Part shown: piece after piece, positions 2,819-23,990 of the stretch
Layout: the number at the start of each line of letters is the position of its first letter
Position numbering within the stretch: the stretch's first letter is position 1
IMG/VR virus record: IMGVR_UViG_2531839583_000011
Location: 1 to 24,912 of that record
Source: a virus
Taxonomy: Duplodnaviria > Heunggongvirae > Uroviricota > Caudoviricetes
DNA: 24,912 nt
Reading direction: 5' to 3' (one strand)
Program-made: the position numbers and the translations under genes
The notes under the pieces: model-generated
The model's database searches: none
What the model was told of the DNA's origin: nothing
The model's input: only the letters and a program-made list of their open reading frames with translations

Positions 2819-5411
2819 TTGCATACTCCTTAGCCCAGCGGGGCAGTGATAACGTCTTAATAGCTGGCCATTCATCGGTATTTAGGCAGTCAGCCAGGGT
2901 CCGCAGATTGCGGTGATATTCCTGCTGGCCTGCCAGTTTTGCTTCTTCGCCCATCATGAAAATCTCAACCGGATAACGTCCGCATTCAACAGTTGTGCTG
3001 GCAACCAGAAAAACGAAAGTTGGCTGCACACCAAACTGTGCTTCATAACCGTCACTGTAGAATGCATCCTGAACGTGATAGCGGTAGTCGTAATAAGACG
3101 TTTTGAATCGTTGAATATCCGCTGTGGTTTTCACGTCCATGATCCAGTGAAATTCAGGAATAATTTTGTCCGGACGGCACCGACACAAAATTCCTGTTTC
3201 CGGATCTTCCCAGTAAATTGATGATTCAGCGTGTCCGGCGCTTTCAACAAGCCATTGCCCCAGCGGCAAAGCCATAACGCTTTGATACATGAGTTCAATT
3301 TTCCGGCCTTCTTCCGCAGTGATAACCGTTTTTCCTGTGCTTGCGCATTCCATCAGAAACGCTTTCTCTTCTTCTTTTCCGGCGTTTGTACGGCGGTTAA
3401 ATTCAGGTGCTACGATAAAGCGGTTACTAAATTCTTCCGGTTCAAGTACCCGGCAGTGGAAAGCGGTTCCTAAATCGAGCGTTTTTGTCTTTGTAGTGTC
3501 CACGGGGGCATTTTTACGCCACAAATACAGTGCCGGAGTATCAGCAATGTCATCGAGCTGAGACTTACTGACACCGGGACCCGCGTGGTAATTCTCATTC
3601 GAAATTCCGTAATAAATACCGGGCTCTATGTCTTCTACGATTACGGGATCTGCGACTTCGCCAGTTTCATCACTGCAATCGCGATGCGGATCGCTGCCAG
3701 CATTCTCATTGTGCGGATGTTCAGCGCCTTCCATTTCCTCCGGATCTTTTTCCTTAGCTTCAACCTGATTCTCTTCACCGAATGTTTCCTGGTATGTTGC
3801 GTCGCCCATCACCGCACCACAGTCAGGGCAGTTATCCCCGCCAGTCTGACCGCAGGCATTGCAGACTATTTCCTGTTCCTGTTGCACTACTGGCTCAGGT
3901 TGTTTCGCATCCGGGCTGATTATTTCCGTTTCTGGCTGGTTCTGGTACACAGAATCGCGAGTCTGGATCCCCTTTACCCATTTCGGATCGTTCGGGTCGC
4001 TAATTCCGTCAACAAATTCACCACGTGATGCAGCAAGCAATTTATCGGCATCGACAGGATCTTTTGATGGAATGTTTTTTCGGGCTTCATGGAGTTCTGC
4101 CCGCAGTTCCTGATATTTCGCATCAACAGAATTTACCTGTGACTGAGCATCCAGCGGCTGCGTGTCCTGATGATGTTCAGTTGCGTCCGGTTCCATTGTT
4201 TCAGCCTCTCCCTGTTCAACTGCCGTTGTTCCAGATGGTTGCGGTTTTTCTTCATCATCCTGTTTTCCTTCTTCTGTTACTCGCTGCGGCATCGGGGCAG
4301 AGGAGCGACCGCAGGCAATATCCACGATTTCCGGATCAGGGTTGGCATGATCGGTTTCAGTCAGTACTTTGTTCAGATATTCAGTGACGTGCGCGGGGAT
4401 GACCTCGATCCCAATTGGTGCTTCTTTTACGGACGCAACCACGATGGCGCGGGAATAATCCAGCCCGCCAGGCATGGTGATGAATTTGTCGCGGAAAACA
4501 GAAAAGGGCGGTTTATTTTCAGCGATAATTTCCTCAATGCGTTTAGCGTGTGCCGGATGAAGGTTATAGATGTCCAGATCCATTGAACGGGCCAGTACGC
4601 CAGTGGCTACGTCGCACGCCAGTGACGTCAGATCGTGTACGAAACCTTCGCCGCGATCGGTGAGGTTTCCGCCGCCAGCATTAGCACCGGAAGCCGTGCG
4701 AGTGATGTGTGAAACACGATTACCCTTCATCCACTCTTTTGTCAGCAGTCCTCGATCGGTGTAGTCAGCGTTCAGGTATGCTTCGAAAAAAGCAGTTATC
4801 AGTCCCAGGTTTGAATTACCAGGATTAGGGAAAACTTTGTCAGTGTCACGAACCAGTTTGTGGAGTTCGCGAATTTCCAGCGGGTCGAGCAGGCTGGTTT
4901 TGTGGGAAACAGCCAGGGCAGTAACAGCCGGTAGTTCTTCAGCCCGAGCAATGTGTAATGCCTGGAGTCCGTCGCGTGAAACGTGCGTTACCGGTTTTTC
5001 GCTGCCGTGTTGAGCAAGCCAACGAATGGGCAGTTCCTGGCCAGAAATTGGGAGTAGCATATTCTCCTCAATCTCAGTCATGTCTTCGCCGTTGACGTTG
5101 GTATTGCCTTGATAGTGAGCGTTGTCTGGTGCTGCTCCCGGTTTTAGTTCCCATGTCATGGAGTCTTTGCTGAGTTGATAGCGTTCACTCCAGGTAAAAT
5201 CGATCTCACCTTCAGCGGGCAGGTCATTAACGACAGGAAAATTCGTGGCAACAGCTTTAAAATAGCTGCTCAGTTTTTTACCTGACTTAACGATCAGGTA
5301 GTCCAGAGTGGCACAGGTCGATTCAAAATCGTTGCTTGCCCACAGGACGACGTCAGGTTCACCGGATGATTTTTTCGCTTTCCGTAACAGGAAGAGTGGT
5401 TTTGTGCTCAT
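2811..5411 (-). CDS. recE: RecE exonuclease VIII
   Basis: The 866-aa ORF has the same length as K-12 RecE. The C-terminal nuclease region is recognisable ([24 protein letters not shown] ... [31 protein letters not shown]). An acidic low-complexity middle region is also present. Confidence 0.95.
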
Positions 5412-7481: not shown

Positions 7482-7648
7482 CTTATCTCTCCCCTTAACG
7501 CCGGGTGGCGGAACTAACTGCTGCACTGCAAAATTTGAATCCCGCCGTCATGTTCATACGCCTCGGGCTGGCTACTTAACCCCTGACCACTGCCTGGTAA
7601 CTCGAAGTATTGCCCGGCGTTCTGTGGGGCGGGGTGGGTTGGTAGGTA

Positions 7649-7695
7649 TATAATGTACTTTGTGTTCATCATTGTAAAGTACTTTAAGTACATTT
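7649..7695 (-). promoter_or_regulatory. Candidate leftward early promoter (pL-like) overlapped by GTAC-core operator repeats
   Basis: On the - strand the -35 is TTTACA (7673-7678), the spacer is 17 bp, and the -10 is CATTAT (7650-7655). AATGTACT occurs at 7652-7659 (+) and at 7687-7694 (-). A perfect palindrome, AAAGTACTTT, lies at 7676-7685. Confidence 0.45.
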
Positions 7696-7768
7696 TATGT
7701 ATAAAAAAATGAGACGGGATAAAGTGAAGCACAAACCCGGAGGGGGACGCTACCGGATTTATGCTGGT

Positions 7769-8188
7769 TTAAGAGGCTTTTTGTTTTTTCTTTCGTGCTA
7801 ACTCTTCGTAAATTGCATTGTACTTCTGTTTTTTCTCCTCAAGAGTTTTTAAAAGTTCATCTGTCTCACTGTCAGGGAGCTCGTCCAGAAGGTCAATGAT
7901 GATTTTTTGTCTTGGATTTAACTCCTGATAGAAACGTATCTGTCCACTTTCTTCTGTATCCTCTCCCAAAAGATAGGTTGGTGTTGTTCCAATGAGTGTT
8001 GCTAATTCCCTTAATTTCTCTCGGCGAGGAATTGTTTCACCATTAAACCATTTGCTAACCGCTTTTGGTGTTAATTTCATTCGACGGGCAATTTCTGCCT
8101 GCCTTCCATGTTGTTCATAACCAGCGTTTTCACAGGCTAGCGCAAGCCTACTGGCGAACTCTTTACGCGCTTTATCTTCATGAACCAT
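7769..8188 (-). CDS. CI-like prophage repressor (XRE-family HTH, no S24 peptidase domain), in the racR position
   Basis: The 139-aa product has an N-terminal HTH (GRQAEIARRMKLTPKAVSKWFNGETIPRREKLRELATLIG) and a charged coiled-coil-like C-terminus. It is divergent from a Cro-like gene. I do not recognise the sequence well enough to assert that it is identical to K-12 RacR. Confidence 0.8.
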   Translation of the reverse strand: MVHEDKARKEFASRLALACENAGYEQHGRQAEIARRMKLTPKAVSKWFNGETIPRREKLRELATLIGTTPTYLLGEDTEESGQIRFYQELNPRQKIIIDLLDELPDSETDELLKTLEEKKQKYNAIYEELARKKKQKAS

Positions 8189-8267
8189 AAGTTCAATGAT
8201 ATTCGCTCTTGAATGTACTGTCAGTTCTGTTATAGCATGTACTCAAAGTTCACATTGTGAGGATGAT
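8189..8267. promoter_or_regulatory. Divergent immunity control region (OR-like) with two ATGTACT repeats
   Basis: ATGTACT occurs at 8213-8219 and 8237-8243. This 24-bp spacing equals the spacing of two GTAC cores in the left-hand region. A candidate rightward promoter has TTGAAT (8209-8214), a 16-bp spacer, and TATAGC (8231-8236). Confidence 0.45.
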
Positions 8268-8522
8268 ATGAACCAGAAAACACTTGAAGATGTAATCAAA
8301 ACTGTTCGCGTTTCTGTTGTGGCCGACGTTTGTGGTGTCAGCCAAAGAGCAATCTACAAATGGATGGATAACGGAAAATTGCCTCGCACAGAATATACCG
8401 GCGAAACAAATTACGCTGAAAAAATCGCTCATGCATCAAACGGATTATTTTCTGCCGATGCAATTTTAACTATTGGCAGAAATAAAACTACTACGAAAAA
8501 GCTGATGGGAGTTGATTCATGA
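8268..8522 (+). CDS. Cro/YdaS-position HTH protein, 84 aa
   Basis: Met at 8268 is preceded by GAGGA. An HTH is visible (VVADVCGVSQRAIYKWMDNGKLP). It is the first gene of the rightward operon, and its stop overlaps the next start as ATGA. Confidence 0.75.
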   Translation: MNQKTLEDVIKTVRVSVVADVCGVSQRAIYKWMDNGKLPRTEYTGETNYAEKIAHASNGLFSADAILTIGRNKTTTKKLMGVDS

Positions 8523-8941
8523 AAATCAAGCATGAGCACATCGAATCAGTGTTGTTAGCCCTGGCAGCCGAAAAAGGGCAGGCGTGGGTCGCTAACGCAA
8601 TTACTGAAGAATATCTGCGCCAGGGGGGCGGCGAATTGCCCCTGGTACCAGGCAAGGACTGGAACAATCAGCAGAATATCTATCATCGTTGGTTGAAAGG
8701 TGAAACGAATGCGCAAAGGGAAAAAATTCAGAAACTGATCCCTGCGGTTCTGGCAATTCTTCCTCGCGAGCTGCGTCACCGACTCTGCATCTTCGATACC
8801 CTGGAACGCCGTGCATTACTGGCGGCACAGGATGCACTGAGTACGGCAATTGATGCGCATGATGATGCAGTCCAGGCCGTTTACCGTAAAGCACATTTCA
8901 GCGGCGGCGGTTCTCCTAGCGATTCTGTCGTAGTGCATTGA
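8519..8941 (+). CDS. ydaT: YdaT-family protein (CII-like regulator / reported toxin of Rac), 140 aa
   Basis: The product starts MKIKHEHIESVLLALAAEKGQAWVANAITEEYL. The length and position match Rac YdaT, and it is translationally coupled to the cro-like gene. Confidence 0.7.
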   Translation: MKIKHEHIESVLLALAAEKGQAWVANAITEEYLRQGGGELPLVPGKDWNNQQNIYHRWLKGETNAQREKIQKLIPAVLAILPRELRHRLCIFDTLERRALLAAQDALSTAIDAHDDAVQAVYRKAHFSGGGSPSDSVVVH

Positions 8942-8985
8942 TTGAAATTAATCGTACCGAACTGTTTTGTTCGGTATCAGTTAAA

Positions 8986-9428
8986 TGTAACGCTGCGAGC
9001 GTTACAAGGTGAAAACAAATGGCTTCAAACTGGATAAAGCTCGAAGTTATTACGCCGGATAAGCCGGAAATATTCAGGCTTGCTGAGATTCTGAATATTG
9101 ATCCAGATGCCGCATTAGGGAAAGTCATTCGCTTCTGGGCATGGGCGGATCAACAAATGATAGACGGTAACGCAGAGTGTAACGCTCGCGGCGTTACAAA
9201 AAGTGCAATAGATCGCATCACTTTTATGGCTGGGTTTGCTGATGCGTTAATTCAGGTTGGATGGCTGGTCGAAACTAATGGTGTGTTGTCGCTTCCTAAC
9301 TTTGAGCGCCATAACGGGAAAAGCTCTAAAAAACGGGCGGTTACAAACGAGAGAGTAACAAAAATACGAGAACTGAAACGAAAAGGTAACGCTGCCAGCG
9401 TTACAAAAACGGATCAAAAAGCGTTACC
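8986..9428. repeat. Iteron-like 21-bp palindromes and half-sites (candidate prophage origin / initiator-binding sites)
   Basis: Three full palindromes are present: TGTAACGCTGCGAGCGTTACA (8986-9006), TGTAACGCTCGCGGCGTTACA (9178-9198) and GGTAACGCTGCCAGCGTTACA (9385-9405). Half-sites lie at 9166-9173, 9337-9345, 9355-9360 and 9421-9428. A purine/AT-rich stretch follows (9430-9465). Confidence 0.6.
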
Positions 9429-9807
9429 AGAGGAAGAGAAAGAGGAAGATATAAATACTTATCTCCCCCTAAATCCCCCTCGCCAAAAACGAGCGTCTAA
9501 AAAATTCGAACCGGAGGCTATCGAGCTGCCTGACTGGTTGCCGGAAACACTCTGGCATGAGTGGGTTCAGTTCAGGCAGGCATTGCGAAAACCGATTCGA
9601 ACGGAGCAGGGCGCTAACGGGGCGATACGGGAGCTGGAAAAATTCCGCCAGCAGGGTTTTTCACCTGAGCAGGTGATTCGACACAGCATCGCCAATGAAT
9701 ACCAGGGCTTGTTCGCGCCAAAAGGTGTTCGACCTGAGACGTTACTCCGACAGGTTAACACCGTCTCGTTACCGGATAGTGCGATCCCGCCAGGCTTCAG
9801 GGGGTAA
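9019..9807 (+). CDS. ydaU: Replication initiator-like protein (YdaU/DUF1376-type)
   Basis: The 262-aa ORF follows an AAGGTGA Shine-Dalgarno. It precedes a DnaC-like loader gene and contains the iteron-like repeats within its own coding sequence, as the lambda O gene does. The family assignment rests on recollection and synteny. Confidence 0.7.
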   Translation: MASNWIKLEVITPDKPEIFRLAEILNIDPDAALGKVIRFWAWADQQMIDGNAECNARGVTKSAIDRITFMAGFADALIQVGWLVETNGVLSLPNFERHNGKSSKKRAVTNERVTKIRELKRKGNAASVTKTDQKALPEEEKEEDINTYLPLNPPRQKRASKKFEPEAIELPDWLPETLWHEWVQFRQALRKPIRTEQGANGAIRELEKFRQQGFSPEQVIRHSIANEYQGLFAPKGVRPETLLRQVNTVSLPDSAIPPGFRG

Positions 9808-9813
9808 CTGACC

Positions 9814-10560
9814 ATGAAAAATATTGCGGCAGGCGGCATTCTTGAACGTATCCGCAGACTGGCCCCGCCACATGTAACCGCCCCATTCAAAACGGTAGCG
9901 GAGTGGCGCGAGTGGCAACTTTCCGAAGGCCAGAAACGTTGTGAGGAGATCAACCGTCAGAATCGTCAGTTGCGGGTGGAAAAAATTCTGAATCGCTCTG
10001 GCATCCAGCCATTGCACCGCAAATGCTCGTTTGCGAATTACCAGGTGCAGAACGACGGTCAGCGATACGCGTTGAACCAGGCGAAATCTATCGCTGATGA
10101 ACTGATGACCGGGTGTACAAATTTTGCGTTCAGCGGAAAACCTGGTACCGGAAAAAACCATCTGGCGGCGGCTATCGGGAATCGCCTGCTGAAAGATGGC
10201 CAGACAGTGATTGTGGTTACCGTGGCTGATGTCATGAGTGCTCTACACGCCAGCTATGACGACGGGCAATCAGGCGAAAAATTTTTGCGGGAACTGTGCC
10301 AAGTGGATCTGCTGGTTCTTGATGAAATTGGCATTCAGCGCGAGACAAAAAACGAGCAGGTGGTGCTGCACCAGATTGTTGATCGCCGGACAGCGTCGAT
10401 GCGCAGCGTGGGGATGCTGACAAACCTGAACTATGAGGCGATGAAAACATTGCTCGGCGAGCGGATTATGGATCGCATGACCATGAACGGCGGACGCTGG
10501 GTGAATTTTAACTGGGAGAGCTGGCGTCCGAATGTCGTCCTGCCAGGAATTGCGAAGTGA
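9814..10560 (+). CDS. ydaV: DnaC-like helicase loader (AAA+ ATPase)
   Basis: A Walker A motif ([15 protein letters not shown]) and a Walker B motif (LLVLDEIG) are present. The 248-aa size is typical of IstB/DnaC-family proteins. It occupies the Rac YdaV position. Confidence 0.88.
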
Positions 10561-10582
10561 TTTTTACCGGGAGGAAATTTTA

Positions 10583-11344
10583 ATGGAGACTGTTTTTGAC
10601 GCACTGAAAGCAATGGGAAAAGCCACGTCGGTAGAACTGGCTGCGCGACTTGATATCAGTCGTGAAGAGGTACTGAACGAGCTGTGGGAACTGAAAAAGG
10701 CTGGTTTCGTTGATAAAAGCGTATACATCTGGCGTGTGGCTGATAACAACGTTCAGCAGGAACAGCCAGAGCAGGCAGAACTGCCGGAAGAAACCACCAC
10801 GGCAACAGTCGCAAAAATTTCGGAGTGCGATTTAACTGCGACGATTGAACAACGTGGCCCACAAACGGCGGATGAACTGGCTACGTTTTTCGGCATCACA
10901 TCACGCAAAGTGGCTTCAACGCTGGCAATGGCAATCAGTAAAGGTCGTCTGATTCGCGTTAATCAGAACGGTAAATTTCGTTACTGCATGCCGGGCGATA
11001 ATTTACCAGCAGAGCCGAAAGCTGCATCGGTAGCGGAAACTGATGGTAAAGCCTTTCCTCAGCCAGCCGGTGTTGCGTTACCAGCACAGGAAGCGGCAAC
11101 ACAGGAAGAAATTAAAACAGATACTATGGGGGACATTGTGCAGTCACTACCATCGTTCACTGAAACGCGAGCCAATGACCTGATTTTACCATCGCTGCAT
11201 ATGGCAAACCGCGAACTGCGCCGGGCGAAAAGTCATGTCCAGAAGTGGGAGCGAGTCTGCGCCGCGCTGCGTGAGTTGAACAAGCACAGGGATATTGTAC
11301 GACAGATTACTGATTCTTCCCGCCATGTTGCATCGGAAAAGTGA
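10583..11344 (+). CDS. ydaW: YdaW-like phage protein (N-terminal winged-helix-like region), apparently intact here
   Basis: Met at 10583 is preceded by GGGAGG. The product starts [43 protein letters not shown]. In K-12 this gene is a truncated pseudogene, as I recall. Confidence 0.65.
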
Positions 11345-12010: not shown

Positions 12011-12544
12011 TCATTTGTAAAAATCAAAAAATTCTTGGCAGTAGATACCAGATAACGCCAAATATACCAGGACGGCAACGTCTGGTTTTGGTCCTCTTTT
12101 TATCTCATCCAAATCTTTGTTTGTGCAGGAACGCATGGTGTCCCTGATATTCGTATCGTTAGTTAACGATTCGCTGACCGCCAGCACTACTGCTCTCTCA
12201 GTATGACTGAGAGCATTACTGGCTGAAATAATTCGCCCATAGAGTGCGGGATGTGGGGTATTATTACTTTCCGCTATCGCTTGCTGAACACGTTCCTCCT
12301 CTACTGGCATAAGGCGACTGATGAGATCGCTGAGCAAATCTTGCTTTGACTTATGATCGTACATTACCGTTGCCTTACTGACGCCAGCCTCTTTTGCAAC
12401 GTCATCGATTGAAAGTCCAACTGCACCTTCCCGAAGAACAACCCTTTCGCGTTTCATCGTTTCACCGGGTGAGGTCGTGCCAGCGCCGTCGCATCCAACA
12501 TCATGCGGGCAGCAGCAGATCCCATGGATGCGAATAAAAACCAT
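12011..12544 (-). CDS. TetR-family transcriptional regulator, divergent from the deaminase operon
   Basis: The HTH is typical of TetR (LSIDDVAKEAGVSKATVMYDHKSKQDLL). The start is ambiguous: 12544 adds a Cys-rich 29-aa extension (GICCCPHDVGCDG), while Met at 12457 gives 148 aa. Confidence 0.8.
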   Translation of the reverse strand: MVFIRIHGICCCPHDVGCDGAGTTSPGETMKRERVVLREGAVGLSIDDVAKEAGVSKATVMYDHKSKQDLLSDLISRLMPVEEERVQQAIAESNNTPHPALYGRIISASNALSHTERAVVLAVSESLTNDTNIRDTMRSCTNKDLDEIKRGPKPDVAVLVYLALSGIYCQEFFDFYK

Positions 12545-12758
12545 TATAACCTATTGATTATTATTTTTAAATTTTAATCCAGTGCTAGATTTCTGCTTAT
12601 CCCTAGGAACTAAATCATGGAGGTCGAGATTGCCTCCAGATCCTTTTGAGTAAGTGTGCATTTTGTACATGAGGGTTTAGTCAACAAGGTCTTTATTTTG
12701 GATTAATCCTATGGTAAAAAAGAGAAAATTAAGAGTTTGGATATATAAGGTAATTAAA
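12545..12758. promoter_or_regulatory. Divergent intergenic control region between the TetR gene and the deaminase operon
   Basis: It contains a near-palindrome TGTGCA-TTT-TGTACA (12655-12669), a perfect 10-bp palindrome GGATTAATCC (12700-12709), and the hairpin TGGAGG-N9-CCTCCA (12618-12638) followed by TTTT. I could not assign promoter hexamers confidently. Confidence 0.35.
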
Positions 12759-15084
<2,326 letters not shown>

Positions 15085-22507: not shown

Positions 22508-23299
22508 ATGAGCGAGAAATTAAAGATAGTCTATCGCCCATTACAAGAATTGTCACCGTATGCGCACAACGCCAGGACGCACAGTACTGAGCAGGTGGCA
22601 CAACTGGTAGAAAGTATTAAGCAATTCGGCTGGACTAATCCGGTGCTGATTGACGAAAAGGGCGAAATTATTGCGGGTTACGGTCGTGTTATGGCGGCTG
22701 AAATGCTCAAAATGGATTCTGTTCCGGTCATTGTTCTGTCTGGCCTGACGGATGAGCAGAAAAAGGCGTACCGCCTGGCAGATAATCGCCTGCCGATGAA
22801 TGCTGGCTGGGATGAAGATCTGTTGCGGATGGAGCTGTCGGACCTAATCAATGCTGATTTTGATGTCTCCCTGACAGGCTTCATCCCGACAGAAATTGAT
22901 GAACTGTTGACGGATGTTTTGCCCGGTACAGGAAATGAGGAGGAGCCGTATACGACGAAAATTGATACGCCTGTTTATGAGCCGTCGGGCGGTAAACCGG
23001 ATATCAGTGAACTGTACGACGATACGAAAACTCAGGAGCTGATCAGCCGGATACGTTCGGCGTCCCTTGAGCCTGATATTGAGAAATTCCTCCTGTGTGC
23101 GGCAGAACGTCACACGGTGTTTAATTTCAGCAGAATTGCGGACTATTACGCTCACGCCCCCTCTGAAATTCAGTGTTTTTTCGAGGAGTCGGCGCTGGTG
23201 ATCATTGATTATCAGCAGGCTATTGAAAATGGATTTGTCCGGATGACGCAGCGCATGGTGGAGATCATGCATGGTGGTGAGGAGGAGGAATATGCGTGA
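22508..23299 (+). CDS. ynaK: ParB-like nuclease-domain protein (full-length YnaK-like), 263 aa
   Basis: The N-terminal ParB/Srx-like domain is recognisable (LSPYAHNARTHSTEQVAQLVESIKQFGWTNPVLIDEKGEIIAGYGRVMAA). It sits in the ynaK position after trkG. As I recall, K-12 carries only a short version. Confidence 0.75.
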   Translation: MSEKLKIVYRPLQELSPYAHNARTHSTEQVAQLVESIKQFGWTNPVLIDEKGEIIAGYGRVMAAEMLKMDSVPVIVLSGLTDEQKKAYRLADNRLPMNAGWDEDLLRMELSDLINADFDVSLTGFIPTEIDELLTDVLPGTGNEEEPYTTKIDTPVYEPSGGKPDISELYDDTKTQELISRIRSASLEPDIEKFLLCAAERHTVFNFSRIADYYAHAPSEIQCFFEESALVIIDYQQAIENGFVRMTQRMVEIMHGGEEEEYA

Positions 23300-23990
23300 T
23301 GATTTTTGCGCCTTTATTCTGACTCACGGGCGACCGGACAAAGTTCTGACTTACCGGACGTTGCGTCGTGCTGGCTATACCGGGAAAATTTTTATCGTTG
23401 TTGATGATGAAGATAAGACACGGCATCAGTACATGGCTGAATTTGGTGAACAGGTGCTGGTGTTTTCCAAAGCCGATATCGCCAGTCGTTTTGACGAAGC
23501 CGATAATTTCTGTGACCGCCGCTCAATTTTTTACGCCCGTAATGCCTGTTTCGACCTGGCAAAACTGGTCGGGTGTAAATACTTCATTCAGCTCGATGAT
23601 GATTATCACGAGTTCCAGTTTCGGGTGGATCGCAACTATGACCAGGCCTATTTTCCGATAAGGAAACTGGATGCGATCCTTTCTGAAATGCTGGCGTACT
23701 ACGAATCAATACCTGCTCTTTCCATCGCTATGTCGCAGGGCGGGGATTTTCTTGGTGACAATGGCGGCCATGCTTCGTGGGTGAAACGCAAGGCAATGAA
23801 CAGCTTTATCTGTTCGGTTGATCGACCGTTCTCATTCATGGGGCGCATTAACGAGGATGTGAATACGTACACGAATCTCGGTCGCTGTGGTGAATTGTTT
23901 ATGACGATCGGTGCTGTCCAGTTAGGGCAGAAACAGACGCAGAAAAACAGCGGCGGAATGACCGAGCTGTATCTGGATTCCGGAACGTGA
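23292..23990 (+). CDS. GT-A-fold glycosyltransferase-like protein (ydaY position), probably truncated at its 3' end at a deletion junction
   Basis: ATG at 23292 follows GGAGGAGGA and overlaps the ynaK stop by 8 nt. GT-A hallmarks are visible: [22 protein letters not shown] and a DxD-type FIQLDDDY. The reading frame ends exactly where J homology begins. Confidence 0.55.

Follow-up and report, generated by a model that had tools for sequence, protein, structure and literature searches.

GTAACGC palindromes in and upstream of the initiator gene of a Rac-like prophage: candidate iterons of an in-gene replication origin

The repeats described here lie in and just upstream of the replication initiator gene of a virus genome (Caudoviricetes; IMG/VR record IMGVR_UViG_2531839583_000011, positions 1 to 24,912). 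This whole stretch of 24,912 nucleotides (nt), hereafter the window, constitutes a Rac-like prophage located at the ttcA site. An initial annotation, made from the sequence alone, had reported three 21-bp palindromes, at least four half-sites with the core GTTAC/GTAAC and an adjoining purine/AT-rich segment, and had taken them for binding sites of a YdaU-like initiator within a lambda-type origin. All three palindromes were borne out on reading the sequence, and the half-sites comprise two exact heptamers and two sequences that keep the pentamer core only (Table 1). The purine/AT-rich segment that codes for EEEKEEDINTY does adjoin the end of the array and consists of an all-purine tract followed by an AT-rich stretch.

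Table 1. Positions in the window of the repeats, the neighbouring tract and the two replication genes
Feature	Position	Strand	Sequence or assignment	Context
Palindrome copy 1	8986-9006		TGTAACGCTGCGAGCGTTACA = TGTAACGC-TGCGA-GCGTTACA	Non-coding gap between ydaT-like (cII-like) gene and initiator gene
Initiator gene, 262 amino acids (aa)	9019-9807	+	PHROG 2509 'replication initiation protein', E 4.7e-88	
Site A, whole	9166-9198			
Site A, direct half-site	9166-9173 (exact heptamer 9167-9173)		GGTAACGC	
Site A, palindrome copy 2	9178-9198		TGTAACGCTCGCGGCGTTACA = TGTAACGC-TCGCG-GCGTTACA	Inside initiator gene
Degenerate half-site	9340-9345		GTTACA	Pentamer core only
Degenerate half-site	9355-9360		GTAACA	Pentamer core only
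Cluster B, whole	9385-9428			
Cluster B, palindrome copy 3	9385-9405		GGTAACGCTGCCAGCGTTACA = GGTAACGC-TGCCA-GCGTTACA	
Cluster B, half-site	9421-9427		GCGTTAC, exact heptamer	Directly adjoins purine tract
All-purine tract, 21 nt	9429-9449	+	AGAGGAAGAGAAAGAGGAAGA	
AT-rich segment	9450-9463	+	TATAAATACTTATC	Follows all-purine tract
Junction element	9465-9479	+	CCCCCTAAATCCCCC	Junction of N-terminal module and shared DnaT-like module
ydaV, DnaC/IstB-like helicase-loader ATPase	9814-10560	+	IstB_IS21, E 3.8e-20; PHROG 50, E 8e-85	

Within the 21-bp copies, the perfect dyad GTAACGC-N5-GCGTTAC occupies positions 8987-9005, 9179-9197 and 9386-9404. A search of the window that allowed up to two mismatches returned three matches, all with no mismatch. 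Comparison with shuffled sequence, which the initial annotation had proposed, was carried out: dinucleotide-preserving shuffles contained a mean of 0.06 palindromes and none of 100 shuffles reached three. The window contains 10 copies of the heptamer GCGTTAC/GTAACGC, where 2.2 would be expected; all but two fall within 8987-9427. Between copy 1 and the ATG at 9019 there are 12 nt, and the copy adjoins a Shine-Dalgarno sequence (AAGGTG). Site A codes for DGNAECNARGVT, and its extra half-site is a 12-bp insertion (four amino acids, NAEC) relative to TL-2011b; cluster B codes for part of the disordered linker of the initiator. Tandem Repeats Finder reported only the AGAGGA hexamer repeat at 9429-9449, the iterons being too dispersed for the program. 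DnaA boxes were not found near the region, and their count over the whole window was at chance level.

The initiator was modelled with AlphaFold2 from a 22-sequence alignment. The model contains an N-terminal domain (residues 11-98; predicted local distance difference test, pLDDT, 70-89) built of helices and then a beta-hairpin, a disordered linker (residues 99-159, pLDDT <50) and a C-terminal three-helix bundle (helices 176-188, 196-211, and 216-225 at pLDDT 82-91). The stretch encoded by site A forms an N-terminal-domain loop modelled with low confidence, and cluster B with the purine and AT-rich tract (9385-9463) corresponds to residues 123-148 of the linker. Residues 170-262 matched the C-terminal domain of DnaT (2ru8; phmmer, E 1.6e-4), including an identical PDSxIPPGFRG tail; in Escherichia coli DnaT this domain is a three-helix bundle that binds single-stranded DNA (PMC5778457). 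BLASTP gave 81% identity between residues 139-262 and YdaU of E. coli K-12, and no similarity to K-12 YdaU for the N-terminal 138 residues. The N-terminus of K-12 YdaU is a DUF1376 domain (PF07120, E 2.7e-26), whereas the window protein has no DUF1376 match. No Pfam or NCBIfam model for the N-terminal domain was found, and the first 140 amino acids had no Pfam match even at E<=10; the match to PHROG 678 ('O-like') was confined to residues 76-236. On sequence comparison the window initiator is thus a mosaic, and the earlier description as YdaU-like holds for its C-terminal half only. A group of E. coli and Salmonella proteins of 374-380 amino acids (P0011-P0058) is about 96% identical to the first ~57% of the initiator and continues into a longer, different C-terminal part, so the iteron-bearing N-terminal domain is joined to at least two alternative C-terminal modules.

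Relatives of the N-terminal domain were found by tblastn in phages of Escherichia, Klebsiella, Salmonella (epsilon15), Xanthomonas, Pseudomonas, Ralstonia, and Vibrio, and an exhaustive profile-free search gathered 6577 clusters at 50% identity. Two comparison sets were drawn up, one of 80 viral contigs and one of 80 loci that each came from a different species. The species loci range from 38 to 68% guanine-plus-cytosine (GC) and belong to Enterobacterales, Pseudomonas, Burkholderiales, Planctomycetota, and Verrucomicrobiota. Exact heptamers were concentrated around the start of the gene in the species loci, with 351 (6.3 per kb) between -200 and +500 and 18 (0.087 per kb, about the chance level) outside. 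A dyad homologous to site A was present at offset +148/+160 across these loci. Homologues of cluster B, at about +345 to +390, had three to six half-sites with 11-12-bp phasing in all lineages examined, typically in the order forward, forward, reverse, reverse. At least three exact heptamers lay within the first 470 nt of the gene in 132 of 145 unique loci. Relatives also have an exact GCGTTAC at +334, which corresponds to window 9353-9359, where the motif is degenerate. The upstream copy was confined to Rac-like and other Enterobacterales loci. The sites exist, are non-random, and are co-inherited and co-varying with the initiator's N-terminal domain across phyla.

Codon use at the sites was examined to separate constraint on DNA from constraint on protein. 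Site A and copy 3 both code for G-N-A-x-S/G-V-T, and DGNAxSVT is kept in most homologues, as it would be if the repeats were a by-product of a needed peptide motif and the DNA had no cis function. However, codon choice for the GNAxSVT peptide of site A was near-invariant among 68 loci and favoured codons that are rare in high-GC hosts: glycine was GGT in 67 of 68 (background 17%), asparagine AAC in 65 of 65, alanine GCT in 56 of 68 (background 21%), serine AGC in 52 of 52 (background 26%), and valine GTT in 63 of 68 (background 22%). Variation was free in the spacer codon and at the third codon position next to the heptamer. The heptamers of cluster B are read as GNA/SVT in the frame of the window and as VTx/ALP in other phages (TL-2011b, Klebsiella phage), where the same DNA gives VTxxAL, and one palindrome is non-coding altogether. 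Among 54 enterobacterial relatives the arms were 80-100% conserved and the 5-bp spacers variable, in the non-coding copy too, where spacer conservation was 55-78%. When codons were resampled synonymously with the protein fixed, two in-gene palindromes arose in 8 of 20000 trials (p ~4e-4) and six or more heptamers in 0 of 20000; because resampling almost never recreates the sites, they are not a by-product of the protein sequence. In the model the peptide falls where confidence is low or the chain is disordered. It is the DNA itself that is under selection at these sites. The codon, reading-frame, and resampling tests largely refute the view of the repeats as a mere reflection of a peptide repeat, and we regard a peptide origin as very improbable.

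The sequence of the sites changes in concert within a locus. Three loci (L138, L161, and L162) have GTCACGC/GCGTGAC at both site A and cluster B. In epsilon15, whose protein is 32% identical, GTCCGC occurs at +54, +65, +78, and +100 and again at +333, +344, +357, and +368, and a Planctomycetales locus (L143) has eight copies of GCGCAAC in the same two-cluster layout. In each case the layout was kept while all the sites of the locus switched together, which would be expected of binding sites for one co-evolving protein. The GTCAC variants also bear on a reading of the palindromes as hairpins in RNA or single-stranded DNA (antisense or attenuating terminators, mRNA stability elements, or signals of the primosome-assembly type) rather than as duplex sites, since both arms are altered and complementarity is kept. 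Each palindrome folds to an 8-9-bp hairpin of -7.6 to -8.9 kcal/mol (z-scores -3.6 to -4.6), and copy 3 is followed on the minus strand by CTTTTCGTTT and was flagged as terminator-like. In contrast, the sequence itself is conserved across phyla, beyond what pairing alone would need, and many of the sites are direct half-site repeats at 11-12-bp phasing that cannot pair with one another. Two of the three copies lack a T-rich tail. An Rfam scan of 7500-10800 at permissive E-values returned noise only, and none of the known RNA families in that scan, oop-like RNAs included, accounts for copy 1. Such hairpin functions therefore seem improbable, if somewhat less so than the peptide explanation.

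The tract beside cluster B is conserved along with the sites. In the window, 9400-9459 has a GC content of 35%, an AT skew of +0.54, and a strong bias of the strand towards A and purines. Cluster B almost always adjoins a polypurine run, and did so in the lineages examined, also where the iterons have changed. A 23-mer, AGAGAAGAGAAGAGAAGAGAAGA, recurs unchanged across many phyla and was seen in Hahella, Pseudohongiella, Pseudomonas, Xanthomonas phage CP2, Duganella, and epsilon15; this tract is usually the longest purine run of its locus, and all three reading frames are used to translate it, giving PREEKRRED or PEKRREEK, for instance. The architecture that leads from the sites to the purine tract within the linker-coding segment is thus conserved, and 9429-9463 is a candidate DNA-unwinding or helicase-loading region. 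The junction element that follows is common to K-12 ydaU (CCCCCCCTAAATCCCCCCC, L002 3913-3931), and variants of the type CCCCCCTTACCCCCC occur in Pseudomonas and Klebsiella relatives. It may merely code for PPLNPP, with CCC and CTA, both rare codons in E. coli, or else act as a recombination joint or some further cis element.

Taken together, the palindromes and half-sites probably serve as iterons of an origin of replication that lies within the initiator gene of this Rac-like lambdoid prophage. The earlier proposal of initiator-binding repeats forming an in-gene origin is strengthened by selection at the DNA level, conservation across phyla, and concerted change; from these we infer that the initiator binds the sites, that the tract unwinds, and that replication starts there. 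On this model, derepression would lead to transcription of the early rightward operon (cro-like, ydaT/cII-like, initiator, and ydaV) through the region. Dimers of the N-terminal domain would then bind the GTAACGC-N5-GCGTTAC dyads and the phased half-sites, at the upstream copy, at site A, and at cluster B ~200 bp further on. The resulting multi-site nucleoprotein complex would destabilise the adjoining polypurine/AT-rich tract at 9429-9463, and the DnaT-like C-terminal domain would engage the single-stranded DNA and, with the DnaC-like YdaV, bring in host DnaB. YdaV is the presumed partner of the C-terminal domain.

Several points weigh against an in-gene origin. Sites inside a gene are co-inherited with its protein automatically, and the binding protein is not identified thereby. 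The compared loci share ancestry and are not phylogenetically independent, although synonymous sites can be argued to be saturated because third positions beside the sites vary freely. Successive full palindromes are spaced at 192 and 207 bp, in contrast to the contiguous iterons of lambda, and the purine tract of the window is a degenerate version of the family consensus. A search of the literature gave no published work on the origin of this initiator family.

The same sites might instead be transcriptional operators, through which the initiator or another phage protein represses its own synthesis or blocks read-through of the early operon while replication starts elsewhere. The full sites are perfect dyads of the type bound by dimeric regulators, copy 1 is immediately 5' of the ribosome-binding site of the initiator gene, and DNA-level selection and co-variation with the gene fit operators equally well. 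There is a precedent in iteron plasmids, in which dimeric Rep occupies inverted repeats at the rep promoter. The initial annotation had likewise suggested that copy 1 could autoregulate the initiator gene. However, most of the sites are intragenic, the upstream copy is absent outside Enterobacterales, and a promoter scan found no sigma-70-like promoter beside any palindrome. The pairing of cluster B with a polypurine/AT-rich tract is also the usual arrangement for an origin and has no obvious role in repression. A purely regulatory function is therefore unlikely, but it is the least improbable of the alternatives considered; operator and origin functions are not mutually exclusive.

The in-gene origin could be taken further. 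The GTAACGC iterons and the near-invariant (AGAGA)n tract might together form a portable 'origin cassette' of a large initiator family, in which the tract serves for sequence-specific loading on a single strand, is recognised by the DnaT-like (or an equivalent) C-terminal module, and is not a generic AT-rich unwinding element. This extension is tentative and on balance doubtful. A loading site of this type would account for the retention of one 23-mer all the way from enterobacteria to Planctomycetota, in loci with altered iterons as well.

The family appears to be undescribed, as do its iteron consensus, its layout in two parts, and its conserved polypurine tract, and the principle of an origin inside an initiator gene is textbook knowledge. 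If confirmed, the iteron consensus, two-cluster layout, and polypurine tract would define, at the level of sequence, the origin of a large family now annotated as 'hypothetical protein', and origins in these phages could be predicted directly from sequence. The natural variants GTAAC, GTCAC, GTCCGC, and GCGCAAC would be a ready system for the study of initiator-iteron co-evolution, and the sites would be a clean case of a DNA signal that constrains codon choice, and even protein length, within a gene.

The surrounding genes are those of a Rac-like element. A 99.9%-identical E. coli relative (L001), seen in the context ttcA-intR-xisR-recET-...-trkG, is annotated with ttcA, intR, xisR, ralR, recT, recE, racC, kilR, and sieB, followed by a repressor, a cro-like gene, ydaT, a 'hypothetical protein', ydaV, DUF1627, and DUF977. 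Among 5426 complete E. coli genomes, at least 679 had the variant at a query coverage of 80% or more; AR_0369 (CP027140) is one strain that carries it. The ydaT-like protein encoded upstream of the initiator matched a cII-like PHROG. The assignment of ydaV rests on the Pfam family IstB_IS21 and on PHROG 50, which is labelled 'DnaC-like helicase loader'. In epsilon15-like phages (epsilon15 itself is L007) and in some Vibrio phages, as seen among L053-type Vibrio and Salmonella phage hits, a C-5 cytosine methyltransferase gene directly precedes and overlaps the initiator gene.

Other features of the window were recorded as well. A hairpin with an 8-bp stem (TACCGAAC-N6-GTTCGGTA, 8955-8976) lies between the stop codon of the ydaT-like gene and the initiator gene; it is followed on the minus strand by CGATTAATTT and has a terminator-like score, with no Rfam match and no promoter found. 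In lambda the terminator of oop RNA has the matching position, between cII and O. A cargo cluster at 12011-15084, between the DUF977 gene and the nin-like region, encodes a TetR-like regulator (minus strand), an adenosine-deaminase-like protein, a Ham1/ITPase-like protein, and a SIR2_2-domain protein. The anti-phage genes iteA and iteS sit at the corresponding position in L001, and the site therefore looks like a swappable defence-island hotspot; the cargo of the window is a possible nucleotide-targeting defence system. Just past trkG (22508-23990) there are genes for a ParB_N-domain protein (ynaK-like) and a protein with a TET-associated glycosyltransferase (TAGT) domain, a pair that may be part of a DNA-modification module.

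One close known system is the Rac prophage of K-12, which has been reported to have an active origin, oriJ (PMC3945230). The window resembles it in its site on the ttcA/intR side, in gene order, in the C-terminal module of the initiator, and in a near-identical ydaV, and the DNA is 96% identical to K-12 Rac from window position 9550 onward. The two differ in that K-12 has a DUF1376 N-terminus, other repeats, and racR in place of the 139-aa repressor of the window. The GTAACGC palindrome was not found at the K-12 locus, even at three mismatches. Since K-12 ydaU lacks these palindromes, mapping of oriJ in K-12, which had been suggested as a comparison, is unable to confirm or refute the window sites. 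K-12 ydaU has its own repeats, three copies (two direct, one inverted) of ATGTTCAAACA at L002 3792-3859, in the equivalent place just before the linker, and these are candidates for the core of oriJ. The individual copies are ATGTTCAAACA at 3792 (+), GTGTTCAAACA at 3825 (+), and ATGTTCAAACA at 3849 (-), and degenerate copies are present as well (L002 3753-3859). Because K-12 YdaU, with another N-terminus, has other repeats, the cis repeats follow the N-terminal domain, in the way that iterons go with the origin-specific half of lambdoid O proteins. Prophages called 'Rac' thus have at least two non-homologous origin/initiator N-terminal modules on the same helicase-loading module, and results for K-12 oriJ are therefore not transferable to all Rac-like elements.

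Two further systems were compared. Plasmid iterons (pSC101, R6K, RK2, and pSK41 RepA) are 17-22-bp direct repeats outside the rep gene and are bound by winged-helix Rep proteins. The window differs from them in that no homology of its initiator to those Rep proteins was detected and in that DnaA boxes are lacking near its sites. DopC is a domesticated lambda-O-like protein with a DnaT_C domain, encoded beside the IstB-like ATPase DopE, and no iteron was found at the locus in the work that described it (PMC5509034). DopC and the window initiator are alike in combining an N-terminus of the origin-binding type with a DnaT C-terminal motif and an adjoining gene for an IstB/DnaC-like ATPase. However, DopC has a lambda-O-type helix-turn-helix N-terminus and no iterons, whereas the N-terminus in the window belongs to another family and iterons are abundant.

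Lambda is another close known system. In lambda, initiator dimers bind the repeats, which are four contiguous 19-bp iterons. The putative origin of the window is like lambda ori/O, and like those of the Shiga toxin (Stx) phages P27 and 933W, in lying within the initiator gene and in having dyad repeats with an AT-rich tract adjoining. It is like lambda also in its two-domain initiator, whose N-terminus is specific to the origin and whose C-terminus would engage the helicase loader, and in the gene order cro, cII-like, initiator, and loader. The initial annotation had proposed a lambda ori-in-O architecture; the in-gene repeats beside a purine/AT-rich tract agree with it, but the array is not tight. 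The window sites are instead bipartite, with site A in the region coding for the putative DNA-binding domain and the phased cluster B at the polypurine tract ~200 bp downstream, and there is an upstream copy in addition. The tract is a conserved polypurine (AGAGA)n run and not simply AT-rich. The N-terminal domain has no Pfam match and hence falls outside the lambda O Pfam family, and the C-terminus is DnaT-like, with a DnaC/IstB-like partner instead of lambda P. In Stx phages, extra iterons lengthen the initiator by 13 amino acids (PMC7466680), and the window is alike in that the additional half-site of site A lengthens the protein by the four residues NAEC.

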